A stretch of 64,000 bases of DNA from Methanobrevibacter sp. (GCF_017468685.1 NZ_JAFUHT010000034.1:7221-71220); one strand, 5' to 3'; counted from the first letter of the stretch, positions 28,636 through 47,987 are shown. Program-made: numbers and translations. The notes: a model not told the origin generated them from the letters alone.

Positions 28636-28656
28636 ATTACTTTTCAAATGCTCTCT
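28636..28656 (+). promoter_or_regulatory. 21-bp repair-gene box upstream of nurA
   Basis: ATTACTTTTCAAATGCTCTCT, 7 nt before TTTAAATA. Confidence 0.75.
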
Positions 28657-28733
28657 CGTTTGATTTAAATATTATCAAGACTAATATATGATTAGCATTT
28701 ATTATTGCCCACTAGGGCATTTTTTAAATTAAT

Positions 28734-29825
28734 GTGTTTAATAAGAGTGATATTATGTTAAATTCATTATATGAAAAAGCCATCGCTAAAAGAGGATTTA
28801 TCCGTGAAGTCGCTCCTGAAAAGGATATTGATTCGCAACTGGAGTATAAATGGTTTGAAAGACCAATTGGTGAAAGTACGAAGGAATTTTCCATTGCAGC
28901 CGGAGACGGTAGTTTCAACAAAAAGAAATTTCTGACAACCAACTTCTGTGCGGTAGGTGCAGAATCAATCATATATGATGGTGAAATTAAAAAGATAGAT
29001 GATTCAGATATTTTCGATATATCACATGTAACTTTTCTTGATGAACTTTTGAGTACATATATGGCAATATATGAACTGAAATGTGGCCTGAGGGCTATTA
29101 AGGAATACGGTGCTGACTATTACATGTTTGACGGTTCAATTTTAGGAGACTTGCAGAACGCTTTTCCAAGAGGGGCAAAGCTGCCTATTAAACTTAAGGA
29201 TAATTTGGATGATTCTCTTCTTGCGGAATTTGAAAGGAGATTGAGCGTTCGAAAATATGGGCTGGTTTTTCCAGAACTCAGGGATTCATTGAAACTGATG
29301 GAACTTCCAAAAGAGGATGTAAACAAAACCGAAGAGTATAATCTTCATTTGGCTGCTGTTGAGAAAATTATTCTATTAAAGGAGATTTTGCAGTTTAGAA
29401 AAAGAATAATTTCAATTTCCAAAACCTCTTCGGACAATGAGCTGTTCAATTGGAATATTCCGGACATTGCATTTCTTGACAAGTTCACCAAAAAGCAGGG
29501 AATGACAATTATAAAGTATAGGAATGTTCACGAGAATGCTCCTTTTCAATATTTCAATGATTTCTTTAAAAGCTTGACTTTTACCGTATTTTATGTACGT
29601 CTGCAGGATAATAAGAATGTGCTGAAAGTGGAATTGCCGTATAAGGCAACAAAAGAAGAGGTATTTGAGATTATACGTAAGATTAATGTGCTGTCTGTTC
29701 AGGGTTATCCTTATCTTTTAAACAAGGCCCATAATGATGTGGTGATAACCGGCGGGAACATGAAGGAACTGATGAAAATAGCTAAGATTTACGAGACAAC
29801 AAACAGGGAAGTGATGTCATGGTAG
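28734..29825 (+). CDS. nurA: NurA 5'-3' nuclease
   Basis: AGDGS, MFDGS, SISKTS, GYPYLLNKAHNDV; coupled to herA. Confidence 0.92.
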   Translation: MFNKSDIMLNSLYEKAIAKRGFIREVAPEKDIDSQLEYKWFERPIGESTKEFSIAAGDGSFNKKKFLTTNFCAVGAESIIYDGEIKKIDDSDIFDISHVTFLDELLSTYMAIYELKCGLRAIKEYGADYYMFDGSILGDLQNAFPRGAKLPIKLKDNLDDSLLAEFERRLSVRKYGLVFPELRDSLKLMELPKEDVNKTEEYNLHLAAVEKIILLKEILQFRKRIISISKTSSDNELFNWNIPDIAFLDKFTKKQGMTIIKYRNVHENAPFQYFNDFFKSLTFTVFYVRLQDNKNVLKVELPYKATKEEVFEIIRKINVLSVQGYPYLLNKAHNDVVITGGNMKELMKIAKIYETTNREVMSW

Positions 29826-31321
29826 TGGGAATCTGTGTAGGAGAAACTAATTTAAATGAAGTAACATTTATTTCTGATAAAATGCCACAAGTTGGTCAAT
29901 ATGTCACAATAGAATATGACGGTAAAAAAGTATTGGGTATGGTTGAAAATCTGGTGAGAGGAAACGATGCGTTGAATGTTGACATCAACGACTTCAAGGC
30001 AATCCAGAAAATCTCAAAAATAGGTGTTGAGGACAACTACATCCGTGGTAAAGTCAAAATCCTTGGAGATGTAAACGATAACCTTAAACTGCCAAGAACA
30101 CCTGTGCTTCCAGGAACAGAAATTCAGCATGCTGATGCAGAAATCCTAAATGAAATATTTAAGGTTACAAATCCTATCAAACTGGGAACATTGGTTAATC
30201 AAAGCGATGTGGATGTAAATGTTGATGCAAATCCGATTCTTTCAAGGCATTTGGCAATTCTTGCAATGACTGGAGCAGGTAAATCAAACACAGTATCAGT
30301 ACTGATAGATCAGCTGCTCGGATATAATGTGCCTGTATTCGTATTTGACATGCATGGCGAGTACAAGGGAGCGGAATTTCCAAATGGTGACGTGAATGTC
30401 ATCAAACCGAAAATAAATCCAACATACATGTCATTTCTGGAGATAAAAAAGCTTGTAAACATTCCAACAAATGCATATCTTCAGGAACGCTACTTCAGAA
30501 AAGCATTCAAGGAAGCTAAAAAGAAAGTAGAGGATGGAACAGCCCATGAAAAAAATTTCTTGCAGTTAATGTATGATATTTTAGAGTTTGAATCAATGGA
30601 AGAAGGCTCAGATAAAAGAATCGTTGATGTAATGAACAAGATTGACGATTCAATGGACAAGTACTCCAATCTCTTCGACCAGTACACCGGAAATATTTTA
30701 ACCAGCATTAAAAAAGCTCATGTCAATGTATTGGATTTAAGTCAAGTTGATGAGTCAGTTGCAAGTGTGCTTGTAAGTCATATACTTAGAAATTCTTTGA
30801 AACGTTCCAAAAATGCAGCTCATAGTGGAAACAAAGATGAATTGCTTGACAACTCAGTATTCTATATTTTAGAGGAAGCACACATTCTAGCTCCAAACAA
30901 ACGTGACAGCGATTCTAAACGATGGATTCAAAGAGTTGCAAGAGAAGGCCGTAAATTCGGTCTTGGTTTATGCTTGGTAAGCCAATCTCCAAAAACTGTA
31001 GACCATGATGCCCTCTCTCAGATGAACAATATGATAATATTAAGACTTGTCGAGCCTGAAGACCAGAGACACGTACAGTCAGCAAGTGAAAGCCTGTCAC
31101 AGGACCTGGTAAATCAATTGCCTTCACTCAACGTCGGTGAAGCCATTGTTTTGGGTTTGATGAGCAAAGTTCCTACTCTTGTTAAAATAGACAAGTTTAA
31201 GGGTCGTACTCACGGTGATGACATGGATATTGTATCTTATTTTAAAGATTCAATAAAAAGGGAAGCCGAAGAGATTGAAAGGCAAGAAGATGAACTTATG
31301 GATATGGGATATGAGTATTAA
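29819..31321 (+). CDS. herA: HerA bipolar helicase/ATPase
   Basis: N-terminal HAS barrel, RHLAILAMTGAGKS, FDMHGEY, EEAH, AREGRKFG, SQSP. Confidence 0.93.
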   Translation: MVVGICVGETNLNEVTFISDKMPQVGQYVTIEYDGKKVLGMVENLVRGNDALNVDINDFKAIQKISKIGVEDNYIRGKVKILGDVNDNLKLPRTPVLPGTEIQHADAEILNEIFKVTNPIKLGTLVNQSDVDVNVDANPILSRHLAILAMTGAGKSNTVSVLIDQLLGYNVPVFVFDMHGEYKGAEFPNGDVNVIKPKINPTYMSFLEIKKLVNIPTNAYLQERYFRKAFKEAKKKVEDGTAHEKNFLQLMYDILEFESMEEGSDKRIVDVMNKIDDSMDKYSNLFDQYTGNILTSIKKAHVNVLDLSQVDESVASVLVSHILRNSLKRSKNAAHSGNKDELLDNSVFYILEEAHILAPNKRDSDSKRWIQRVAREGRKFGLGLCLVSQSPKTVDHDALSQMNNMIILRLVEPEDQRHVQSASESLSQDLVNQLPSLNVGEAIVLGLMSKVPTLVKIDKFKGRTHGDDMDIVSYFKDSIKREAEEIERQEDELMDMGYEY

Positions 31322-32610: not shown

Positions 32611-32631
32611 ATTACTTTTCAAATGCTCTCT
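32611..32631 (+). promoter_or_regulatory. 21-bp repair-gene box upstream of mre11
   Basis: ATTACTTTTCAAATGCTCTCT, 9 nt before ATTAAATA. Confidence 0.75.
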
Positions 32632-32732
32632 TGCAAAACTATTAAATATAAATTAGTATAAATTATTACACATTAAATGCTTGTTAAAGTGTTTAAATTG
32701 GTTATAATACAAAAAATAAAAAAGGTAATATA

Positions 32733-33974
32733 ATGAAATTTGCACATTTAGCAGACACTCATTTAGGTTACCGTCAATATGGATTATTTGAACGGGAAAA
32801 AGACTTTTATGAAGTGTTTGATAAGGTTATAGATAAAATAATTGAAGAAAAAGTAGACTTTGTAGTACATAGTGGTGACTTATTTGAAACCGCAAGACCT
32901 TCACCTATGGCACTTTTGACTTTCCAGAAGGGGTTATTGAAACTTAAAGGTGCAGGAATTCCAATGTATGCAATTGCAGGAAACCATGATGTTGTAATGC
33001 GTAAGGGATCCATCCCGCCACATGTAATCTTTAAAAAAATGGGACTGAAAGTGATAAGTACAATCAATCCTACCTACATTCATGGGGACATATTTATCGC
33101 AGGTCTTCCATATTATCCTGCATCCCATGGAAAAGCATTAAAAAGCAAACTGGCAGAGCTTTCCGAAAAGGCAACCCACCATGAAAAGTCAATACTTGTC
33201 CTTCACCAGGGAATTGACCAATACTTCAATTTAAACTATGAACTGGAACTTGGTGAAATACCTGACAATTTTGATTACTATGCTTTAGGCCATATCCATA
33301 AGTATGTAAATGACACTTACGGTAAAGGCAGATTGGTGTATCCTGGTTCAGGTGAAATCTGGAAAACATCCGAACTTCCGGATTATAAAAAGAACGGTAA
33401 GGGATTTGTGGTTGTTGATTTCGATGGCACAAAACCAATTGTTAAAAGGGTAACTGTTGATATTCCCCGTGAATTCATAGAAAGGAATTTAAACTATAAT
33501 AATTTGGAAACAGATATTGCAGCAATTAAAGATACTATAAAAGGTTTCGATAAAAAACCGATATTGAAATTAACAATTAAGGATGTTGAATCAGATACCA
33601 GCAGAGTATATGAAATCATCAAAGAGGAATTGGGCGATTTGTCTTTAATGATCAGGCCTACTTTTATAATGGCTGGTGAGGAGATTGAACCAATTGATGT
33701 TGAATCTAAAAAATTAGGTCCAGAACAGCTCATAGAAAAATCTCTAGAAGGATATGGCAATAGTGAAGTCACTACACTTGCTATCGATTTATATCATCTG
33801 CTTTCAAAAGACAAGCTCGATGAATCACAGGAGATTATAAACCAATACTTTGATGCACATTACAGTAATGTAGTTGAAGATGTTGAATTTAAAACAGAGG
33901 AAGTTAAAAAACCACAACCTCCGGAGGAAAAAGAGGATGTACAAGTAACATTTAGCAAGGAGGTTTCAGAATGA
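32733..33974 (+). CDS. mre11: Mre11 nuclease
   Basis: ADTHLG, SGDLF, AGNHD, LGHIH phosphoesterase motifs. Confidence 0.95.
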   Translation: MKFAHLADTHLGYRQYGLFEREKDFYEVFDKVIDKIIEEKVDFVVHSGDLFETARPSPMALLTFQKGLLKLKGAGIPMYAIAGNHDVVMRKGSIPPHVIFKKMGLKVISTINPTYIHGDIFIAGLPYYPASHGKALKSKLAELSEKATHHEKSILVLHQGIDQYFNLNYELELGEIPDNFDYYALGHIHKYVNDTYGKGRLVYPGSGEIWKTSELPDYKKNGKGFVVVDFDGTKPIVKRVTVDIPREFIERNLNYNNLETDIAAIKDTIKGFDKKPILKLTIKDVESDTSRVYEIIKEELGDLSLMIRPTFIMAGEEIEPIDVESKKLGPEQLIEKSLEGYGNSEVTTLAIDLYHLLSKDKLDESQEIINQYFDAHYSNVVEDVEFKTEEVKKPQPPEEKEDVQVTFSKEVSE

Positions 33975-36717
33975 TTTTCACTAGGTTAAAGTTAAATAAT
34001 TTCAAATCACATGAACACACAGTCATATCATTTGATAAGGGAATAAGTGTTATTGTTGGTGAGAATGGTGCTGGAAAATCAACAATACTCGAAGCAATCA
34101 GCTTTGCTTTATTCAAACAGCATACTGGTAAAAAAATTGATGATTTAGTTAGAAACAATGCCAATTCAATGTCTGTGGAGTTGGAATTCACTTCCAACAA
34201 CAGGGATTATAAAATAATCCGTGTGAAAAAATCCAGTTTAAAATCATCTTTATTTAAAAGAACATCTTCAGAAGGAGGATATGTCCATGTTTGTACAGGT
34301 GACCGGGAAGTGGCTAATGAAATCCGTCAAATATTGGATATCGATTCTGACTTGTTCTTGAATGCAATTTATATTAGGCAAGGTGAAATCGCAGAATTGG
34401 TAGACAAAACTCCTTCCGAGAAAAAACAATTGATCGGTAAACTATTGGGAATCGATTCATTAGAGAAAGCCTGGAAGAGTTTACTTCCTTTCATCACAGA
34501 TTATGAATCTCAACGATCAGAACTTAGAGGCAAACTGTTTAACTCTGCTGAATTGATGGAAAGTTATAAGCACAAAAAGGCCGAATTGGAAGAGTTAAAG
34601 CAAAGAGGTCATGAATTGGAGGAACAGATTACTGAAGTCGATTCACTAATTAAAGAAATTTCTGAAAGTAAACGTAACATGGAACGGGAAAAAGAAATCT
34701 ATGAAACTCAACTTAACAATTTAGAAATGGAGAAAAAAACATTTGCTAAATTGGAAGAAGACAAACACAGAGTTCAGGAAGGTTTGGATCAAATCCGTGA
34801 AGCTGAAGAAAAAATTGAAAGGCTTGAAAAATACGTTTCCAAATTGGATGTTTATCTTGACTTTGAAAAATCTGTCAACAGCATTCAAAGATTAAAACAG
34901 GAAGAACAGGATATATTTGACAAATTAGATTCCATTTCTGAGCAAAAAGAATTACTTTTAAATAAAAAAGAGGGTTATAATAAATATTTATCTTCAGATG
35001 AAGAAATTAACAAATTAAACGATAAAAAGAATAATTTTGAAAAAGAATTGGCAACAATGGCTAAACTTGAAAAGGATAAAAAAGATTTGTTAAAAAACAT
35101 TGAAGATGAAAGGAATGATATTGAAAGTTTCTTCTCCAAATCTAAAGATAAATTGGATGATTATGGTCTTGACCAGGAAAAATTGGGTAAAATCGATGAT
35201 TTCAATCATCTTGAAAAATCAACTGAGGAGTTTAGAGATGAAACTTCCACAAAGATTGATGATTTAACAAAAGAAATCGTTGCCAAAAACGAAGACATTG
35301 TTGTTTATAAACAGAATATCAAGGCATGTGAAAAACCTTTAGTTGACCTGGAAGGCATTGACAATAAGTGTCCTGTTTGCCAGTCAGACATCAGCTCCTA
35401 TAAGAAAAAGGAATTAACCAAGCATTACAATAGTGAAATTAAGGAAAATCAAAAATTAATTTCAGAAAATGAAGAAAATGTCCGTTTGCTTACTAAAAAC
35501 AAGAATAGCTTTGAGGAAAAATTGGATAAACTCACAGAGTTGTCTAAAGATATCATTGAATATAAACACAAATTCGAACATTTGCAAAACGAGTTAATCC
35601 AGTTAAATAAGATGGATGAGGAATTGGAAGCAAAAGAATATATCAGCAATAAACTTGGTGAGTTGATATTGGTCATTGCCAATAAAAAAGAAGAACGTGA
35701 ATCATTTAAACAGGACCATGATTCATATATTCAATCTAAAGGTGCTTTGGATGTTTTAGGTAGTGAAACTGAAGCCCAATATAAACTAAAACAGGTTCAA
35801 AATGAAATTGACAATCATGTTGCCAATATCAAATTGGCCATTGAACAGGATCCTCATTTAAGCGGTGATATCAGCACTGCTGAGCTTAAAAATCGTATGG
35901 ATGATTTGAAACAGAAAAATGAGGAGTTCAACCAACTTAAGGGATTCATTCAAAATAAAAATTCATTGCTGACTCAATTGGATTCAATTAAAGAGGATAT
36001 TGGTGTTTCAATTAATCAAAAAGACATTATTGAAAATAAATTAAATGCTTCTTTATATGATGCAGATAAATATGAGCAAATTTTATACAATTTTGAACGT
36101 TATGAGAGAAGAAAAACCAATTTCAATGAGGAACTTTTCACTATTAAAGGACAGGCAAAAGAATCAATTGCTGCACTTCAGGATGTGACTGAAAAAATCA
36201 AAACCGCCAATAAGTTCAAACAGGAATATGATAATGTAGATGATTATATCAGTCTTTTAAAACATATTCGTGAAATTTATAGTCGTGGAGGAATTCAAAA
36301 AGAATTAAGAAAGATTTCACGTCCTACAATTCAAAAACACACAAAAGAGTTCTTTAAAGAGTTTAATTTCAACTACTCTGATTTAACTATTGATGATGAT
36401 TATGAAGTGACTGTTTATGGTCCTGAGGAGAATCATCAATCAGTATGGTTAGTGGTGGTGAAAAAATAGCTATTGCTCTTGCTTTAAGATTGGGTATTAC
36501 TCAGGCTTTAGCCAATGGTGAATTGGATACTATCTTATTAGATGAGCCTACAATTCATTTGGATGCTTCAAGAAAACATGAACTGATCAATCTGTTAAAG
36601 GAAATGTCTTCATTGCCTCAAATGATTATTGTAACTCATGAAGCGCAACTGGAAAATGCTGCAGATAATCTGATTAAGGTAGAAAAAGAAAATGGTATTT
36701 CAAAAGTAATAATGTAA
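33971..36717 (+). CDS. rad50: Rad50 ATPase, split by an apparent single-base deletion near 36427-36428
   Basis: GENGAGKS, YIRQGEI Q-loop, CPVC zinc hook, coiled coils; SGGE, LLDEPT and VTH motifs lie in the downstream frame. Confidence 0.93.
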
Positions 36718-36740: not shown

Positions 36741-37136
36741 TTACATTGTTTCCGGTGCATCTTTAATTGAGTCGATTATGCAATTAGCATTCCACCCTAC
36801 AATGGTTGCCGCATTTTCTTCAAGGACTTCTGGTACTTCTTCAACACCAATAGGTCTTACAAGTACAATCGGAATGTCATATTTTTTACTTGCATTTAAC
36901 AAATCATCAAACAGCTCCTTATTGTCGCTGTAAAGACCGGCTAACATTATTATCCTGTCAACTTTTTGGTAAAACTCTTCACCTGCACTAGCATAAGCTC
37001 CAGACATGGATTCTTTCCATAGAAAATCAGTTTTAGAATATAATTTTTCGGTAAACTGGCCGTATTCCTTATTTTTATCAAAACCGTTAGTGATTATTAA
37101 ATTATAAATTTTGTCATCTCTTTCGTCTTCAAACAT
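36741..37136 (-). CDS. MTH538-like TIR/flavodoxin-fold protein
   Basis: IMLAGLY, PIVLVRPIG.EEVP..L, IVGWNANCI pattern matches MTH538/DUF1863. Confidence 0.75.
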   Translation of the reverse strand: MFEDERDDKIYNLIITNGFDKNKEYGQFTEKLYSKTDFLWKESMSGAYASAGEEFYQKVDRIIMLAGLYSDNKELFDDLLNASKKYDIPIVLVRPIGVEEVPEVLEENAATIVGWNANCIIDSIKDAPETM

Positions 37137-39792: not shown

Positions 39793-40446
39793 ATGTCTAT
39801 TTCTACAATCATTACTGCTGCTGGTAAGAATTCTCGTATGAGAAATGATCAGATTTCACGCGGTATCGAGTTGACAAATAAACTTATTTTACCTTTTAAC
39901 AATAAGACCGTTATAGAGACCACAATTGATAATGCATTATCCTTGAATATTGATGAATGTATTGTAGTACTTGGACATTATGCCAGTGAAATAAAGGAAG
40001 CTATTTTTGATAATTATAAAGATGAAGTAAAGTTTGTAGAAAACAATCCTGTTGATGTAGGTTTATCAACATCACTTTACAATGGTCTTTCAAATATTTC
40101 TTCTGATTTTGCTTTGTGCATTACCGCCGACCAGCCGACAGTCTCAGCCGAAACATTTAAGAAAATGATTGAAGTAAGCCAATCCTCAAAAAATCCATAC
40201 AAAACAATATCAATTTTGAGAAGAAGAAAAACCGGACTGTTGGATACTGCTGAAGGGTTGGGAATGCCTTTTGTAGCTCCAAGAAAAAACCTGATGAAAT
40301 ATCTTGAAAATGAAAATGATAATTTGAATCCAATACTTAGAAAGATATTTGATGATGGATATATATTTTATGGAATAAAAGAAAAAAATGAAAAAGAGTT
40401 ATTAAATATTAATCATTATGATGATTATCTAACTCTTTTAGATTGA
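39793..40446 (+). CDS. MobA/MocA-like nucleotidyltransferase
   Basis: ITAAGKNSRM, K.IL.F, ADQP, GMP, NINHYDDY. Confidence 0.8.
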   Translation: MSISTIITAAGKNSRMRNDQISRGIELTNKLILPFNNKTVIETTIDNALSLNIDECIVVLGHYASEIKEAIFDNYKDEVKFVENNPVDVGLSTSLYNGLSNISSDFALCITADQPTVSAETFKKMIEVSQSSKNPYKTISILRRRKTGLLDTAEGLGMPFVAPRKNLMKYLENENDNLNPILRKIFDDGYIFYGIKEKNEKELLNINHYDDYLTLLD

Positions 40447-41124
40447 TTCAAGTCCTTCAATAACTTCTTCGATTTTTGCCTTGCTGATGCCTATTGCCAT
40501 CTCTTCATCCTTGATGTCAGCCGCTTTTCTGGAACCGTCACAACCTAATGTGAAATTAATTCCATCTTCAAGATAAGGTTTTGAAAATGCATCGCCACAT
40601 AATGATTGAATACCTGCAAATAATCCGCAGGCTTTTTCACCGGATTTATAGACTAGGCTTTGTGCAAGTTTCATTCCGCCGACAGGTTTTGTAATAATTT
40701 GAATAACATCAGCTTCAAAATCAGCTTCATCTAAAGGAGCATAAATTATTGCCCATGATCTCTCTTCAATAATTGATAAATCTGCTGTTAATTTTTTTGC
40801 AGTTTCAATATCTTTAAATCTACCTAATGAGAAGTATTTTTCACCATTTGCTAGTTTTTCAGGCATATCTCTAAGTCCAATAGCTCCAGCTCCCCCTAAA
40901 CACATTTGCTGGTCAATTGTTGAGTAGAAAGTGTCTCCTAATGAAGCTTTTCTAACCATTTCACAATGCCTGATTTTTTCACCGATTAGCTCAATGCCTT
41001 CTGGAAGGTCATCTTCAGTTTTAACTAATTTCATTGCAACCGGTTTAGCATCAAGAGTGATTTTACTTTCGATTACTTCACAATATTTTTTGTTTTTCTC
41101 TAAATTATTAGTCAATACAATCAC
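40438..41124 (-). CDS. DUF169 family protein
   Basis: PVAMKL, RHCEMV, CLGG..AIG, CGD, LGCDGSR. Confidence 0.8.
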   Translation of the reverse strand: MIVLTNNLEKNKKYCEVIESKITLDAKPVAMKLVKTEDDLPEGIELIGEKIRHCEMVRKASLGDTFYSTIDQQMCLGGAGAIGLRDMPEKLANGEKYFSLGRFKDIETAKKLTADLSIIEERSWAIIYAPLDEADFEADVIQIITKPVGGMKLAQSLVYKSGEKACGLFAGIQSLCGDAFSKPYLEDGINFTLGCDGSRKAADIKDEEMAIGISKAKIEEVIEGLESI

Positions 41125-41142: not shown

Positions 41143-42375
41143 TTAAGGAATTTTAATATCTTTTGTTTTAACACTGTTATTTTTACAGAATGTTTTAAAA
41201 TCACATGCATTACAGGTTCTTTCATCCGAATCTGCTTTCCAGGCCTCCTGAATTTTACAGCCCTTAATCTCTTTAATTAAGGAACTTTCAATATCAAAAA
41301 CAACATCATCAAATCTGTTAAGTGAATCATCGATTTGTTTATCGTCAATATTGATTATACGAATTGACCTTGCAATTTTAAACTCTTCACTTAACTCCGG
41401 TGCCTTATCATCTTCGTTCCAGTTCATAATCAACTCAACATCATTTGCATATTTACTGTAGTCAATAGCACTATCAGTTCTGTCCTGTGCAATCTCTTCC
41501 TGTATTAAAACCAAATCCTCTTTTGAAGGAACAAGCTCATTTAGATAAAATATTATTCCTGCAAATATAGGTTTTGCATCTTCCTGGCGGCTTCTAAGCC
41601 ATGAATATGTTAGGATTTGCTGTTTATGATTTTCCCATGGATTGGTAAATTTATTGATACTCTGTTCAGGAGGTCTTTTCATTCCTTTATAATCAATGAT
41701 GATTTCGTATTCATCCCCTTCGCTGAAATTTGTGATTTTTTTTCTGAATTCGGGATCTTTTTTGAGAAATTCTATAATCTTGTTATTGTAATTATCCAAA
41801 TTGCTTTGAGTAAGATTTTTATTAATTTTCATTGAGCTTAAAACGTCAACAACACCGTTAATGCCGTAATAGTTGGATCTGCTGACATTTTCATCATAAT
41901 TTGGCATTTTTCTAATTCCCTTAATCAGAAGTTCTGTTGAATCAATCAGAGGAAACAAATGAGGTCCCCAAACATTGATGGCTTTTTCTGCTCTTGCACT
42001 GGCTAATTTCTTATGGTCGTGTTCATTCAAATCCTCAATGGTCAAATCGCTATTCATCAGACTGTAAAACAAATCCTCATCATAAGGGTAAAGCCCGTCC
42101 ACCTGCAATCTAACGTCAATCATGTCCTCAATCGGGCGAATATCCTCTTTCCAGTTCCAAGGAAACTCCTTATTGTTTGTGTCCCATTCAAGATAAGCCT
42201 CTTCCAAAACGCCATGAATGAATTCTCCAAACCATCTTTGAACAGGTTTTGAAGGAGGAAGGGTTCCTTTGTTTTGATAGCGATATTGCAGATTGCATGT
42301 GAGAAATGACAGCAAATCTCCAGTTAGACTGTATTCTGGAATTATATATGATTTTGATCTTGAAGGTAATTTCAT
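41143..42375 (-). CDS. PD-(D/E)XK RecB-family nuclease with Fe-S staple (AddB/Cas4-like)
   Basis: N-terminal Cys (FLTCNLQY), FG...H, GVVD, IDYKG, QILTY, C-terminal CNACDFKTFC. Confidence 0.85.
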   Translation of the reverse strand: MKLPSRSKSYIIPEYSLTGDLLSFLTCNLQYRYQNKGTLPPSKPVQRWFGEFIHGVLEEAYLEWDTNNKEFPWNWKEDIRPIEDMIDVRLQVDGLYPYDEDLFYSLMNSDLTIEDLNEHDHKKLASARAEKAINVWGPHLFPLIDSTELLIKGIRKMPNYDENVSRSNYYGINGVVDVLSSMKINKNLTQSNLDNYNNKIIEFLKKDPEFRKKITNFSEGDEYEIIIDYKGMKRPPEQSINKFTNPWENHKQQILTYSWLRSRQEDAKPIFAGIIFYLNELVPSKEDLVLIQEEIAQDRTDSAIDYSKYANDVELIMNWNEDDKAPELSEEFKIARSIRIINIDDKQIDDSLNRFDDVVFDIESSLIKEIKGCKIQEAWKADSDERTCNACDFKTFCKNNSVKTKDIKIP

Positions 42376-42385
42376 AATTAATCTC

Positions 42386-44836
42386 CTATATTAAGTAAAT
42401 TTCATTAAATCCGTGATATTTTTCATCTCTGCTCCATCCGACGGCAACATTAGGTATGTTGAAGTGGTCTTTTTTACGTGTATATCCTTCAATCGCTGAA
42501 TTTAAACCCACCAACAGCAATACACTTTCTGCTCTTGAAAATGCAACAAAGTAAAGGCGTGTCAAATCATCGAACGAGCGGTCCTTTTCACTTCTTTCGG
42601 ATTCGCCCAATTCACTGTATCTGCGTATGGTGTCTTCGATTGTAATGTTTTTGGCAGATTTTTTCGGGAATCTTAAGTGCTGTGTTTTGATGTTGTTGTC
42701 TTTAAACTTCGAACCCACATCAACAATTACTAATGGAAATTCCAATCCTTTTGACTGGTGTATTGACAGAACATTCACCCTATCATCAGGCAGAGTTTCA
42801 AGTAATGATTCATCAATTTGTATTCCTCCGCTTGCAAGTGGAATGAAAATGTTCCAGATGGCTTCTAAAATTGATTCCTTTTCAGTTTCCTTATTGTAAA
42901 ATGAAATGTTTGAATAGTATTTGCTGAAAAAACCGGTCTGCGTAATGGATTTGGTAATCGCTTCAAGATAAACTATTCCTTCAACATCATCCTGCAGTTC
43001 ATCAATCCAAGTAACTAGTTTGTATGCAAGCTCCATTAGGCTGGCTTTTTGTGGCCATTTGTCACTTCCCCTTGGAATTCTATTCTGCCAGTAAAGGACA
43101 AATTGGCTTAAGTTAATCGGTTCGTGAGGTTCTGGGTTTAGTTTAATGTATTCTCGTGCACGGACTCTCCATCTGGTCATTGTAACCTTTGCAAGATTCG
43201 GAATAGTTTTGTCACTTAACTGAATTTTGCTTTCAGGGTCAATGCATTCAAGCATCAGTCCGCAGAATATTTCCACAATTTCAACCTTTTGAAGTTCAAT
43301 GCCTCTTGGATTAAAGACTTCAATTGGATTTCTTTGCTTTTTTAAATGTCTTCTCAAGTAATATAAAAGTGAATTGTTCCCAAACTGTTTTTCTTTAGGA
43401 GAATATGACAATATTGCAACATCTGATGCGGATCCGTATTCATCATCTAATTTGAGGGTCAGCCTTTCAATTCTTTTTCCCTGCTTTTCACGCTCCTGAT
43501 TAATCTGCTGTAATCTGGCAATATCAATGTTTCCATCAACTTGTCTGAAATAATCTTCATCAAGGACTTTTAAAACCTTAGGATGCACTTCTCCTTCATT
43601 GATAAGTTTTGAAAGTAAGTTGGACAATGATTTTGACAGCATCTCCACATTGTTTCTAAAAAGTCCCAGTATTGGCATTGTGTCCTTTTCAAAATCAGGG
43701 GCTATGATTTTTGGTTTGTTTTTAACCCTTGCAAGCTGATAATCGTCATCGAGTTCAACAAAATGATTGCAAAGGTTGATGATGTTGTCTGTTGAACGGT
43801 AATTAGTTTTAAGATTGATTTCTTCTACATCAATCCCCAATTTATCATTCGCACGTTGCTTATAATTGGTGAATAAATCTACAGTAGCTCCTCTGAAACG
43901 ATAAAGGGATTGGTCATCGTCTCCTACAACTGTAATATTTCCATTGTTTTTAAGTGCGGATTTTGCAATTGTGAAATAGATTTCTTCCTGAATCAAATTG
44001 GTGTCCTGATATTCATCGATTAAAACGATTTTAACATTATCTAAAAATAAATCCAGTCTGTTTTCTTTAAGCATTGTTAAAAATCTAGATTCAAGGATTG
44101 TAAAATCCATTGTATTTCTCTCGATTAGCAAATCCCTATATTTCTTAATGCAATTCAGTGTGATTTCCATTCCTTTATCATGAGTTATCTCTTTAGATAA
44201 CTCATCAATGTCTAGCTTGTCCTGATAGATTCTGTCTTTAATTACAAGTAAAATTTCACTCATTTTTGATGGTTCATCAAATTTTTCTCGGCCTGTCAGT
44301 GTTTTAAGGAATTCCTGAAGAGCTTCGTTTTTATATAATTCATTTTCACTTAGAATCTTTATCATTGCGGAGTTTGAAACAAATTTTTCTATGACAATTG
44401 GATTGTTGGTTCCGGGCTCTTTGTTTTGCCTCATTATTTCTTCTGCCAACTTATCGATTGTCCCAACTTTTATCTGGTTAAAGTCAATCCGATTTACATC
44501 TCCAATCAGGTCAAAATCATCTGTACTGTCAAATATATGATTTTTAATTTCATCTCCCCAGCCCAGGATTCTTGAATATAATTCTTCTGCCGCTTTTCTT
44601 GTAAAAGTTGTTGCAAAAATCTCTTCAGGATTGATGTCATCAACAAATATGAATTTTAATATTTTTAACACCATTACGGTAGTTTTTCCGCTTCCGGGAC
44701 CTGCAACCAAGAATAATGATTCATTTGCTTTGGCGATAATTGCTTTTTTTTGGTCTTCATTTGAAGAAATGTCTCTTTCAAGTACTTTCACTACAATCTC
44801 TTCAAATTCTTCTTGAGTAATCATTTTTTCCCTCAC
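42386..44836 (-). CDS. UvrD/PcrA superfamily 1 DNA helicase
   Basis: AGPGSGKT, TFTRKAA, DEYQD, GDDDQSLYRFRGA, NYRS, SIHQSKGLEF, YFVAFSRA. Confidence 0.92.
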   Translation of the reverse strand: MREKMITQEEFEEIVVKVLERDISSNEDQKKAIIAKANESLFLVAGPGSGKTTVMVLKILKFIFVDDINPEEIFATTFTRKAAEELYSRILGWGDEIKNHIFDSTDDFDLIGDVNRIDFNQIKVGTIDKLAEEIMRQNKEPGTNNPIVIEKFVSNSAMIKILSENELYKNEALQEFLKTLTGREKFDEPSKMSEILLVIKDRIYQDKLDIDELSKEITHDKGMEITLNCIKKYRDLLIERNTMDFTILESRFLTMLKENRLDLFLDNVKIVLIDEYQDTNLIQEEIYFTIAKSALKNNGNITVVGDDDQSLYRFRGATVDLFTNYKQRANDKLGIDVEEINLKTNYRSTDNIINLCNHFVELDDDYQLARVKNKPKIIAPDFEKDTMPILGLFRNNVEMLSKSLSNLLSKLINEGEVHPKVLKVLDEDYFRQVDGNIDIARLQQINQEREKQGKRIERLTLKLDDEYGSASDVAILSYSPKEKQFGNNSLLYYLRRHLKKQRNPIEVFNPRGIELQKVEIVEIFCGLMLECIDPESKIQLSDKTIPNLAKVTMTRWRVRAREYIKLNPEPHEPINLSQFVLYWQNRIPRGSDKWPQKASLMELAYKLVTWIDELQDDVEGIVYLEAITKSITQTGFFSKYYSNISFYNKETEKESILEAIWNIFIPLASGGIQIDESLLETLPDDRVNVLSIHQSKGLEFPLVIVDVGSKFKDNNIKTQHLRFPKKSAKNITIEDTIRRYSELGESERSEKDRSFDDLTRLYFVAFSRAESVLLLVGLNSAIEGYTRKKDHFNIPNVAVGWSRDEKYHGFNEIYLI

Positions 44837-44885
44837 TCATTAAATATGGTTTTATTTATTAAGTTAATACTTAATAAAGTAATTG

Positions 44886-44906
44886 AGAGAGCATTTGAAA
44901 AGTAAT
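44886..44906 (-). promoter_or_regulatory. 21-bp repair-gene box upstream of the UvrD helicase
   Basis: Exact reverse complement AGAGAGCATTTGAAAAGTAAT; 7 nt before minus-strand TTTATTAA. Confidence 0.75.
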
Positions 44907-45047
44907 TTTTAAATTTAAAGTTTATTTAGGTTAACCAAAAATTTATTTATAGTGATGTACAAATTATTTAACATGGGGTAATAATTTCTCCATAATATGC
45001 ATAAGTTAGGAGCAATTGCTTCTAACTTCAAATAATTTCTAATTCTT

Positions 45048-45068
45048 ATTACTTTTCAAATGCTCTCT
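45048..45068 (+). promoter_or_regulatory. 21-bp repair-gene box upstream of the Hrq helicase
   Basis: ATTACTTTTCAAATGCTCTCT, 7 nt before TTTAAATA. Confidence 0.75.
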
Positions 45069-45128
45069 GATTTGATTTAAATATAATAAATTACCAAAAT
45101 AATGATATAATTAATTTTAGCTGATATT

Positions 45129-47987
45129 ATGTCTGAGGTAAACCATATTGATATGTTTAAAAATGATGTGAGATATAGGGAAAATATTGCCCATATTGAA
45201 ACTATACCAGCTAAAAAAGCTAGTTTTAAAAAAGTTGATAATTTAAATGAAAAAATAGTGGACTATCTTGATTCCAGAGGCGTTAAGTTGTACCAGCACC
45301 AAGCCGAGACATATGAAGCAATCCAAAACGGTGAAAATGTAATTATAACAACACCGACCGCTTCAGGTAAAACTCTTGCTTTCAATCTACCGATAATGGA
45401 GACAATGATTGAGGATAAGGATGCAACAGCCCTTTACATTTACCCAGCAAAGGCTCTGTCAAATGACCAGCTGCACGTTTTGGAGAACCTGGAAAAAGAA
45501 TTGGACATTAAGCTAAAACCCCGAACATATGATGGGGACACTCCAAGGACAGAAAAAAGGGGAATACGTGAAAATTCAAGGATTGTACTGACAAATCCAT
45601 ATCAGCTTCATTTGATATTGTCATGGCATCATCAATGGTCAAGATTTTATAAAAACCTGCGTTTCATTGTCATTGATGAATCACATTACTATAAAGGAGT
45701 CTTTGGCTCAAACGTTGCATTTTTAATTAAAAGACTTAAAAGAATTGCAAACTTTTATGGATCATATCCTCAGTTCATTTTATCATCTGCAACACTGGCC
45801 AATCCGTTGGAGCTTGCAAACAGATTGACAGGTGAAGAATTTGCACTAGTTGACAATGACACCTCTCCAAGCGGTGAAAAGGATTTCATCCTGTATAATC
45901 CATTCAAAAATTACGTTAGAAAAAAGATTAACACACAAAATGCACCGTCTGTCCACATGGAGACTGAAAACATATTCATGTACATGATGCTTAAAAACAT
46001 CCAGACATTATGTTTTACCGTTTCAAGAAAAACAACAGAACTAATTGCCATGTGGGCCAAAAAGGACATGACTCAAATAAAGGGGCAATTGGCTCATAGA
46101 ATTGCAGCCTACCGTGCAGGCTATCAGGCAACTGAAAGACGAGAAATCGAAGATGGGCTTAAAAGCGGAAAATATCTTGGAGTTACATGTACCAATGCAT
46201 TGGAGCTTGGAATAAACATCGGATCACTTGATGCTGTAATCATCTCAGGATATCCCGGAACAATGATTTCAACATGGCAACAGGCAGGAAGAGCAGGAAG
46301 GAGCAATCAAAAATCTCTGGCTGTACTGATTGCCTTTGAAAACCAGCTTGACCAATACTTCATGAATAATCCTAAATTCTTCTTTGACAAGGCTCATGAA
46401 AATGCAATCATTGATTTGAAAAATCCTATATTGCAGGATGCACACCTTCTATGTGCTGCAAAAGAACTTCCTTTGCAAAGAGGTGAAGCGGAAAAGTACT
46501 TTGATATTTCACAGGATGTTGTTGATAAGCTAGTTTCCCGCAAGGATTTATATGAAAATCATAGAGGGGACTTTATTTATCCGTACGACGATAATCCTGC
46601 AATGGACCATTCACTTGACCAAATATCTTCTGAAGAGTTTAAGGTAATGAATAATGGTCAACTTCTTGAAACTATGGAAAGGTCCCAGGTCTATCGTGAA
46701 GCTCATGAAGGTGCAATTCTAATCAACAAAGGGGACACTTATGTTGTAAATAGTGTTAATTTAAAGAATGGATTTGTTAATGTATCAAAACAGGAAGTTG
46801 ATTATCATACAATGGTTTTAAACCAGACTGACATTAACATTAAAAAGAAACTGTCAAAAACAAAATATGGCAAGCTGACAATACACTTTGGCGAATTGAC
46901 AGTTAGTGAAGATTACTTTAAATATAAAAAAATGCAATTTTCTAAGGCGGTTGGAACATACCCTCTTGATTTGCCGCCATTAAAATTCAATACCAAAGGA
47001 TTGTGGTTTACAATACCAAAACAGGTTAAGGACACATTGGAGGATATGTTTCCAAATGAGGAGGAAGTCTTTGCGGGCGGATTGCATGGTGCAGAACATG
47101 CTTTAATCGGACTCTTTCCACTTCATACAATGTGTGACAGGTTTGATATTGGTGGACTTTCAACCAATTATCATGAAGACACACAGGAAGCTACAATATT
47201 CATTTATGACGGTTATGAAGGTGGAATTGGTATTTGTGAGAAAGCTGTTGATGTGTTTATAGAATTGTTAAATTCAACCATTGATTTATTGGATAATTGC
47301 CAATGCCAAAGCGGCTGTCCCGCTTGCATTTATTCTCCAAAATGTGGAAATGATAATAAGCCGTTGCATAAAAATGCCACTAAATATATTCTGGAATATA
47401 TGAGGAATTTAATAGCTAGAAGTGATGAGGAAGTGGAAGCTGAAATCACTATTGAAAACGAGGAAATTCCCGATGAGTTTGATGATGCCCTTGAATTATA
47501 TAATAAAGGGGATTATTCCGCTTCAAAAGATGTTCTCAATTCAATTTTGGCTCATGACAATAAACACTCCAATGCACTATCACTTATGGCGCAGATTTTA
47601 TACGAGCAAGACCAAAGAGACATAGCATTGGTATTTACCAAAAAGGCACTTTCATGTGATAGGTCAAATGAAATGGCAAATGAACTTGAAGTGCTTCTTA
47701 CCAATAAGCCCCAAAAACAGGAAGTTAAGCTGAATTCTCTTGATGATATAGAAACATTATATGAAGAGGCTTATGATTTATTTGAACAGGGCGATCTTGC
47801 AACTTCCTCAGAAATATTGGAAAAACTGTTGGATTTTGATGATAAAAATTCAGAAGCATTGGCATTGATGGGATTGATTTATTATCATTCAGGCATTTTC
47901 CAAAAGGCGATTGAGTATTATAAAAAGGCATCAAAAATAAATAAAAATGGTGAAATGGTCCGTGAGTTAAAAATGAGGGTTTCCTAG
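45129..47987 (+). CDS. Hrq/YprA(MrfA)-type DEAH helicase with DUF1998 and C-terminal TPRs
   Basis: PTASGKT, YPAKAL, DESH, SAT, ALELGINIG, QQAGRAGR, HGAEHAL, CQCQSGCPAC, TPR helices. Confidence 0.92.
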   Translation: MSEVNHIDMFKNDVRYRENIAHIETIPAKKASFKKVDNLNEKIVDYLDSRGVKLYQHQAETYEAIQNGENVIITTPTASGKTLAFNLPIMETMIEDKDATALYIYPAKALSNDQLHVLENLEKELDIKLKPRTYDGDTPRTEKRGIRENSRIVLTNPYQLHLILSWHHQWSRFYKNLRFIVIDESHYYKGVFGSNVAFLIKRLKRIANFYGSYPQFILSSATLANPLELANRLTGEEFALVDNDTSPSGEKDFILYNPFKNYVRKKINTQNAPSVHMETENIFMYMMLKNIQTLCFTVSRKTTELIAMWAKKDMTQIKGQLAHRIAAYRAGYQATERREIEDGLKSGKYLGVTCTNALELGINIGSLDAVIISGYPGTMISTWQQAGRAGRSNQKSLAVLIAFENQLDQYFMNNPKFFFDKAHENAIIDLKNPILQDAHLLCAAKELPLQRGEAEKYFDISQDVVDKLVSRKDLYENHRGDFIYPYDDNPAMDHSLDQISSEEFKVMNNGQLLETMERSQVYREAHEGAILINKGDTYVVNSVNLKNGFVNVSKQEVDYHTMVLNQTDINIKKKLSKTKYGKLTIHFGELTVSEDYFKYKKMQFSKAVGTYPLDLPPLKFNTKGLWFTIPKQVKDTLEDMFPNEEEVFAGGLHGAEHALIGLFPLHTMCDRFDIGGLSTNYHEDTQEATIFIYDGYEGGIGICEKAVDVFIELLNSTIDLLDNCQCQSGCPACIYSPKCGNDNKPLHKNATKYILEYMRNLIARSDEEVEAEITIENEEIPDEFDDALELYNKGDYSASKDVLNSILAHDNKHSNALSLMAQILYEQDQRDIALVFTKKALSCDRSNEMANELEVLLTNKPQKQEVKLNSLDDIETLYEEAYDLFEQGDLATSSEILEKLLDFDDKNSEALALMGLIYYHSGIFQKAIEYYKKASKINKNGEMVRELKMRVS

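Follow-up and report, generated by a model that had tools for sequence, protein, structure and literature searches.

A conserved helicase–nuclease gene pair of Methanobrevibacter has a promoter element in common with DNA repair and replication operons

Results

Genes at the locus

The stretch of DNA analyzed here (64,000 nt; GCF_017468685.1 NZ_JAFUHT010000034.1:7221-71220), referred to as the window, belongs to the genome of a rumen methanogen of the genus Methanobrevibacter, an origin that agrees with the names of near-identical proteins and loci. Its minus strand carries, side by side, the genes for a UvrD/Rep-type superfamily 1A (SF1A) helicase (42386–44836) and for a RecB/Cas4-family PD-(D/E)XK nuclease of 410 residues with a 1+3 Cys iron–sulfur (Fe–S) motif (41143–42375), and it is this gene pair that we describe. 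Double-strand-break resection in archaea is attributed to Mre11–Rad50–HerA–NurA. As a preliminary description of this DNA had noted, the genes for all four of these proteins are nearby, 5 to 16 kb upstream of the pair in the window. The same description regarded the pair as an AddAB/AdnAB-like machine that is integrated into repair rather than defense.

The longest open reading frame (ORF) for the helicase comprises 816 residues from a GTG at 44836. Its product matches the Pfam family UvrD-helicase (PF00580) with an E value of 1.1e-49 and 170 bits (cut-off 23), and also AAA_19 and UvrD_C. The translation contains motifs I (AGPGSGKTT), Ia (TFTRKAA), II (DEYQD), III (VGDDDQSLYRFRGA), IV (NYRS), V (IHQSKGLEFP), and VI (VAFSRA), in agreement with the earlier claim that all motifs are intact, and by its score above the gathering threshold and these motifs, the protein belongs to the UvrD/Rep SF1A helicases. 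Because the GTG at 44836 overlaps a Shine–Dalgarno sequence (GAGGG) and the orthologs begin with MI(S/T)YEEFE, translation most likely begins at the ATG at 44824, which would give a protein of 812 residues. Pfam detected helicase domains only in this protein and no nuclease domain.

The nuclease was assigned from a match to PF12705 (PDDEXK_1; 42.5 bits, cut-off 22), from invariant residues, and from its predicted fold. Residues C27, H54, D177, D228-x-K230, Q253-x3-Y257, and C388-x2-C391-x5-C397 are invariant among 10 archaeal sequences and again among 49 archaeal and bacterial sequences, and they comprise the catalytic residues together with the 1+3 Cys staple that characterizes AddB, Cas4, and Dna2. 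By these motifs, the protein is a member of the Fe–S RecB-family PD-(D/E)XK nucleases, as proposed earlier, with cluster binding being predicted from sequence. Neither Pfam nor the structural model revealed a helicase-like domain in the nuclease.

Searching the PDB by sequence, either with the nuclease alone or with a 49-sequence profile, returned nothing relevant. A first AlphaFold2 model, built from 12 close archaeal sequences, was too weak (predicted local distance difference test [pLDDT] score of 67, Foldseek E value of 0.02) and was replaced by a confident model from the 49-sequence alignment, with a mean pLDDT of 80.6 and a predicted template modeling (TM) score of 0.82. The best Foldseek matches of this model are AddB chains of AddAB–DNA complexes (E values of 4e-5 to 9e-4, probability 0.99–1.00), which align over the nuclease domain alone (TM score normalized to the target, 0.17), followed by the Argonaute-associated Cas4-family protein ACE1 (E values of 2e-4 to 5.5e-3, probability 1.00). 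Lower matches were obtained to the AddA nuclease, RecE, and Dna2 (E values of 0.03–0.06), and a match to Exo5 (E value of 0.26) was not significant. The modeled fold is thus nearest to the AddB nuclease domain and the Argonaute-associated Cas4.

Two further features of the nuclease family were seen in the alignments. A (K/T)-(I/V)-P tail is conserved at the archaeal C terminus (41143–41160 in the window) and is not found in the bacterial relatives compared. Methanobacterium-type nucleases have an extra C-x(n)-C…H-P-H insertion (alignment columns 108–125), possibly a metal site, that is lacking in Methanobrevibacter.

Coupling and distribution of the pair

The helicase stop codon occupies positions 42386–42388 and the nuclease ATG is at 42375, so that the gap between the genes is exactly 10 nt, as had been stated; an AGGAG ribosome-binding site lies within it. 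Archaeal loci were gathered with back-translated patterns, whose high specificity confined the set to Methanobacteriaceae. A helicase ortholog stands directly upstream of the nuclease in 79 of the 80 loci fetched by the nuclease (with a gap of 8–16 nt in 70), and the adjacency is invariant in 16 further loci from many genera of the family, down to 45% identity. Each of the 37 sampled genomes of the genus has a single copy of the nuclease gene, which was found in 132 of 199 good-quality genomes of Methanobacteriaceae and in 23 of the 25 genera of this family. Sister families of the order contain no orthologs of either the helicase or the nuclease, only distant UvrD paralogs of about 920 residues.

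A maximum likelihood tree of the nuclease (quick search, unrooted) places the Methanobacteriaceae proteins in one clade (Shimodaira–Hasegawa-like approximate likelihood ratio test support of 99) inside a much larger radiation. Branching within the clade broadly tracks the genus groupings, and the nearest outgroups are one metagenomic protein and one protein from a metagenome-assembled genome of Hadarchaeales (P0125). Synteny around the pair, from NurA to the hyp genes, is conserved in the genus. These data support the view that the pair is a conserved, translationally coupled module of a helicase and an Fe–S RecB-family nuclease and that, in Methanobrevibacter, its genes are stable core genes rather than island cargo; judged by sequence, the pair evolves as one unit. 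Elsewhere in the family, Rad50-like and Mre11 genes lie within a few kilobases of the pair in two loci (L023 and L027), and in a Methanobacterium-type locus (L019), the pair is followed by genes for a TPR-NucS_C nuclease and an SMC-like ATPase.

Searching 1.84 billion representative proteins with a profile yielded only 404 clusters at E ≤ 0.001, many of them GC-rich bacterial in composition. Bacterial relatives were reached through this search and a second homology search, and those that could be named come from Alphaproteobacteria, a myxobacterium (Stigmatella), and Planctomycetes. Gene context was compared in five bacterial loci, a small and taxonomically skewed sample. All five have a gene for a UvrD-like helicase of about 800 residues some 1 to 10 nt upstream of the nuclease gene, with the helicase gene of Stigmatella being split into two ORFs. 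The archaeal pair is colinear from end to end with its bacterial counterparts, at 33% identity for the helicase and 35% for the nuclease.

A promoter element in common with repair and replication operons

A 21-nt element, ATTACTTTTCAAATGCTCTCT, occurs in four exact copies in the window, at 28636, 32611, 44886 (minus strand), and 45048, compared with 0.03 copies predicted by shuffles. The claim that the pair has the same promoter box as the canonical resection genes was therefore correct: the copies precede the NurA–HerA operon, the Mre11–Rad50 operon, the UvrD–nuclease operon, and a divergent gene for an MrfA-like helicase. In the UvrD–nuclease promoter, the TATA-like sequence TTTATTAAG (44870–44878) lies 7 nt downstream of the element (44886–44906, minus strand), and in the promoter of the MrfA-like helicase, TTTAAATAT likewise lies 7 nt downstream of the element (45048–45068, plus strand). 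The NurA–HerA operon (28636–31321, plus strand) consists of the element (28636–28656), a TATA box, NurA (28734–29825), and HerA (29819–31321); likewise, the Mre11–Rad50 operon (32611–36469, plus strand) consists of the element (32611–32631), a TATA box, Mre11 (32733–33974), and Rad50 (33971–36469). At Mre11, the distance from element to TATA box is 10 nt; in the other three promoters, it is 7 nt.

Genome-wide, a 17-nt core of the element with up to two mismatches gave 33 matches, compared with one for the reversed control, and the 21-mer with up to three mismatches gave 34 matches, nearly always just upstream (7–11 nt) of a TATA box. The first genes downstream were assigned from Pfam matches or from clear signatures in their sequences. 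Among them are repair and replication genes, encoding an XPD/DinG-like helicase, TopoVI-B, RPA, Hjc, Hef, a MutS-like ATPase, UvrA, MCM, Hel308, and the RFC small subunit. Possibly related genes code for an ATP-cone (NrdD-like) protein, a radical-SAM protein, a DUF763 protein, and a homolog of YdjM, whose gene in Escherichia coli, ydjM, is an SOS gene. Pfam confirmed the repair and replication genes listed here and the YdjM homolog. The element also precedes mobile-element genes (five IS605 TnpB genes and two integrases), a SocA-type antitoxin gene, and a few small ORFs. About fifteen operons for DNA repair and replication have the element in common with the UvrD–nuclease operon.

Each of the 28 genomes tested from the genus shows enrichment of the element (4–44 matches, compared with 0–3 for the control), which is at background level in other families. 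The element is recognizable upstream of the UvrD ortholog in other species and is found there in a degenerate form in neighboring genera. It again precedes the orthologs of UvrD, RPA, Hef, MCM, TopoVI-B, and DUF763 in a species that has a nuclease of only 64% identity. The possibility that the element is a mobile repeat was considered and rejected: the flanks differ, only the 21-mer and the fixed TATA spacing are common to the copies, and orthologous promoters keep the element. A dispersed-repeat artifact is thus unlikely, although IS605 copies carry the element.

The location upstream of the B recognition element (BRE) and TATA box points to a site for an activator or to an extended promoter element. 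The element appears to define a repair and replication regulon in Methanobrevibacter that has not been described previously; a literature search on a repair regulon in this genus found nothing specific. The regulon may be responsive to DNA damage. Independently of the pair, the element offers a concrete and testable way into how methanogens coordinate the expression of their DNA repair and replication genes. It predicts a regulator, as well as a list of genes, including uncharacterized ones such as those for the DUF763 protein and the MrfA-like helicase and the small ORFs, with a testable link to DNA metabolism.

The mobile-element genes with the element upstream of their TATA box are TnpB genes of the IS200/IS605 type and two tyrosine integrases, and they were seen in two species. 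In the genome under study (G000), the sites lie outside the window, at contig positions C1:21144, C13:390, C77:10528, C39:31962, and C66:40186, and in the second species (G018), they are loci L156–L158, L161, and L167. Either mobile elements tap a host regulon or copies of the insertion sequence helped to spread the element.

Comparison with known helicase–nucleases

The pair resembles AddAB of Bacillus subtilis (PDB 3U44, 4CEH, 4CEI, and 4CEJ) in combining a UvrD-like SF1A motor with a RecB-family nuclease that has a Cys-x(n)-Cys-x2-Cys-x5-Cys staple, in the match of the nuclease model to AddB chains, and in having adjacent, apparently translationally coupled genes. The architecture is different. 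AddAB has two nucleases and the pair has one; AddA has a fused C-terminal RecB nuclease that is lacking in the helicase described here, and AddB, of about 1100–1150 residues, has an inactive helicase-like, Chi-scanning body, whereas the present nuclease has 410 residues. In AddAB, recognition of the Chi sequence regulates nuclease activity. In AdnAB, both subunits combine a motor and a RecB nuclease, whereas here there is one domain per protein. The NCBIfam scores of the helicase are far below the respective cut-offs for AddA (TIGR02785; 141 vs 707.65 bits), PcrA (133 vs 911 bits), and UvrD (113 vs 1144 bits). Domain architecture and cut-offs together rule out membership of AddAB or AdnAB; the preliminary description was thus right about the fold class, with the AddB nuclease domain being the nearest match, and wrong about the architecture.

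Cas4-type proteins such as ACE1 (PDB 9IAC and 9IAB) have the same Fe–S RecB-family fold and the catalytic D…D-x-K and Q-x3-Y motifs. Unlike these proteins, the nuclease described here is twice as long, has helical insertions, and has an obligate UvrD helicase partner. A CRISPR Cas4 was ruled out by a TIGR00372 score of 23 bits against a cut-off of 65 and by the lack of any cas or Argonaute gene among the neighbors scanned with Pfam. Gabija (GajA–GajB) was considered because the helicase matches PADLOC GajB models (best E value, 4.6e-40). These matches appear to reflect generic UvrD similarity; there is no adjacent gene for GajA, an OLD-family ATPase–TOPRIM protein, and the partner is a RecB-family Fe–S nuclease, which excludes this system. 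PADLOC, which had been suggested as a check, thus matched no dedicated system model, giving generic GajB and weak Cas4 similarity only.

Links between UvrD-type helicases and Cas4-like (pfam12705) nucleases have arisen recurrently and independently (Hudaiberdiev et al. 2017; PMC5704561). The same study described an unfused two-gene UvrD and Cas4-like operon in Clostridiales, located in nondefense contexts and with a proposed repair role, and its supplementary tree has “Cas4-UvrD” leaves labeled Methanobrevibacter smithii. It also linked Cas4-like nucleases to COG1205/DUF1998 helicases, a family that it reports to be enriched in defense islands. Unlike the present pair, the unfused operon was described for Clostridiales and not as a core gene of Methanobacteriaceae, and no link to a promoter or regulon was made. 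Identity with the fused UvrD–Cas4 family, which that study emphasizes, was ruled out. The fused family has its own member in the genome under study, a helicase–nuclease encoded on the 8-kb contig C49 (G000:C49:3-3587), of at least 1191 residues, with a UvrD motor and a C-terminal PD-(D/E)XK-like region. This protein is 26% identical to the pair in the motor only, with undetectable nuclease similarity, and by sequence, it represents a separate lineage.

A further comparison concerns restriction linked to DNA modification. The Dpd 7-deazaguanine restriction–modification system (dpdA–K) was reportedly described by Thiaville in 2016. The canonical restriction genes, dpdD–K, encode proteins different from those of the pair. 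The Dpd system is also the subject of Gedara 2023 (PMC10164549). In the Methanobrevibacter genome, there is no DpdA-like paralog near the pair, and a genome search found no Dpd-like modification arm, with neither DUF6884 nor DndB. The only tRNA-guanine transglycosylase (TGT) genes of this genome encode an ArcTGT of 659 residues and, in a housekeeping context, a TGT-like protein of 247 residues. A restriction effector that comes without self-marking could be tolerated only if its action were limited to DNA ends or to sites of damage.

Discussion

We propose, with about even confidence, that the pair is a two-subunit, single-motor helicase–nuclease, a “split RecB,” that processes DNA ends and is wired into repair in Methanobrevibacter. 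Because a modification arm is lacking and the promoter element is common to repair and replication operons, the pair most likely works in repair, recombination, or fork processing alongside Mre11–Rad50–HerA–NurA. The UvrD-type SF1A motor would load at a DNA end or flap, move in the 3′ to 5′ direction, and unwind the duplex, and the Fe–S RecB/AddB-type nuclease, bound to the motor, would cut the displaced strand; both the physical complex and the polarity are part of the proposal. The net outcome would be either degradation of linear DNA or resection of breaks to a 3′ tail for RadA, and the sequence is compatible with wholesale degradation as well as with resection. On the same reading, the cassette is an old mobile unit, often situated beside Dpd-like modification genes in the sampled bacteria, that entered Methanobacteriaceae once, and not the sister families, and was inherited vertically thereafter; the direction of transfer is conjectural. 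With the tree being unrooted, acquisition from a defense system is plausible. If the proposal holds, a major family of gut and rumen methanogens has, as a core function, a second helicase–nuclease in the style of RecB/AddAB, which would alter the picture of resection for this lineage.

A wider scenario joins the pair to the regulon, and we put it forward tentatively, considering it rather less probable than the end-processing role itself. Here, a factor binding ATTACTTTTCAAATGCTCTCT upstream of BRE/TATA would govern a genus-wide, SOS-like repair and replication regulon of about 30 promoters, and the pair would be the exapted nuclease arm of a Dpd-like cassette, rewired as a second, bacterial-type end processor after loss of the modification arm. 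The IS605 TnpB genes and integrases would take part in the same response; mobile elements are known to exploit the bacterial SOS system. If correct, this scenario would provide a clean example of a mobile defense effector domesticated for genome maintenance.

Several observations weigh against a dedicated repair role. The closeness to Mre11–Rad50, which lies about 5 kb from the pair and is separated from it by cell-wall genes, may simply reflect an inherited gene order. Since TnpB genes, integrases, and the SocA-type antitoxin gene are also members of the regulon, membership by itself does not mean repair, and because MCM and RFC are members, the regulon may be linked to replication or the cell cycle rather than induced by damage. 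The helicase, moreover, persists without a detectable nuclease in some lineages, as a full-length ortholog of 41–49% identity, namely in all five genomes of one genus of the family (for example, G102, locus L139) and in scattered species (G104, locus L140, and G108, locus L141). The gene neighbors of these solitary helicases are unrelated (Hdr-like, thermosome, and ATP-grasp genes). The helicase therefore has at least one role that is independent of the nuclease.

The gene contexts of relatives weigh in the same direction. In three of the five bacterial loci (Sandaracinobacteroides, Bradyrhizobium, and Sphingomonas; L144, L147, and L149), the pair adjoins a 7-deazaguanine DNA-modification block. 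All three blocks contain two DndB-like genes, QueC, and PTPS/QueD, two contain DUF6884, and those of Bradyrhizobium and Sphingomonas contain a DpdA-type TGT gene; two of the three loci carry mobile-element genes (integrase, relaxase, ParB, or Toprim). In those bacteria, the pair may be the DNA-degrading arm beside the modification genes, and the alphaproteobacterial loci look like a Dpd-like system that uses the pair in place of the canonical dpdD–K. A literature search aimed at Dpd variants that include UvrD gave no specific result. Among archaea, one Methanobacterium-type locus (L016, 9129–17003) encodes, on a single strand, an McrB-like protein (MrcB_N), an McrC-like protein (DUF2357 plus PDDEXK_7), the helicase, and the nuclease, and the successive genes are 9, 0, and 12 nt apart. 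In another (L019, 4807–10268), a gene for an McrC-like protein of the same domain composition lies directly upstream of the helicase, with a gap of 133 nt. Because the pair can be the distal half of an McrB–McrC-like operon in Methanobacterium-type genomes, a defense role could be ancestral or parallel and could persist in Methanobrevibacter. Homologs are thus found mainly in defense or mobile contexts in the bacteria sampled and in some McrBC-linked Methanobacterium-type archaea, and not in Methanobrevibacter. It is for Methanobrevibacter that the earlier statement, integration into repair rather than defense, is the best-supported reading; for the bacterial relatives and some Methanobacterium-type archaea, it does not hold.

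These contexts are the chief grounds for the strongest alternative, which we consider unlikely but worth serious attention: that the pair is still mainly an antivirus or antiplasmid effector that degrades foreign DNA once ends are exposed, as RecBCD does after restriction, and that the element marks an SOS-like program that also switches on defense and mobile genes. Besides the modification blocks and the McrBC-like genes, this view draws on an N6-methylase near the pair at L020, on the TnpB, integrase, and SocA genes in the regulon, on the adjacent helicase being of the COG1205/DUF1998 family, and on the match of the nuclease fold to Argonaute-associated ACE1. Defense cargo, however, has a patchy, island-like pattern, unlike the pair, which occurs once per genome throughout the genus and in stable synteny. 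Neither a modification arm nor a partner restriction gene was found in the window or genome, PADLOC gave only generic similarities, and the scanned neighbors in the window include no dedicated defense genes, apart from generic SF2 helicase matches and one weak TIR-like match. Most of the element-bearing operons of assignable function, furthermore, are bona fide repair or replication operons.

The end-processing role must also be weighed against an explanation in terms of the helicase alone, which would be either the functional UvrD of the UvrABC pathway of excision repair, a pathway of bacterial type that these methanogens carry, or a general accessory or antirecombinase helicase, with the nuclease being a flap or gap accessory rather than part of an end-resection machine. 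The element in the UvrA promoter, the lineages that keep only the helicase, and the presence of PcrA and UvrD among the best NCBIfam similarities would all fit. However, the bit scores for these two families (113–133) are far below the equivalog cut-offs (911–1144), sister families have only the distant paralogs of about 920 residues and no ortholog, and strict coupling to the nuclease gene in both archaea and bacteria argues for a joint activity, so that this explanation seems improbable to us. That the two proteins act independently and are adjacent through inherited gene order only, as the genomes with the helicase alone might suggest, is very hard to reconcile with the tight adjacency in more than 80 archaeal and all five bacterial loci despite 33 to 35% identity and with the joint absence of both genes from the sister families.

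Other features of the window

A DUF169 (COG2043) gene (40438–41124, minus strand; Pfam DUF169, 8e-57) lies 18–27 nt downstream of the nuclease gene, without a T-tract in between, and is probably cotranscribed with the pair in Methanobrevibacter. It is adjacent to the nuclease in the genus, has the opposite orientation in L021, and is lacking in the bacterial cassettes; it is not part of the conserved helicase–nuclease module. On the other side of the pair, the divergent gene (45129–47987, plus strand) encodes an MrfA/YprA (COG1205)-type SF2 helicase with Pfam DEAD, Helicase_C, and MrfA Zn-binding (DUF1998) domains and a C-terminal TPR. This gene is a conserved divergent neighbor in Methanobrevibacter-like genera, and PADLOC gave generic SF2 helicase matches only. 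Since the gene also has the regulon element in its promoter, a repair role is predicted in the genus for a family that is usually discussed in defense contexts.

Beside Rad50, a 131-residue ORF (36741–37136, minus strand) is conserved across the genus; it has no Pfam match and a weak PADLOC match to the TIR-like protein ThsB (E value of 1e-5). The intergenic region between the divergent UvrD and MrfA-like genes contains an imperfect inverted repeat of 68 nt (44839–44906 and 45048–45115), formed by the two copies of the element in their opposite orientations, the arms of which are 71% complementary and 141 nt apart. Between the two copies of the element in this region lies a palindrome of 13+13 nt, AAGTTAGGAGCAA/TTGCTTCTAACTT, at 45003–45028.

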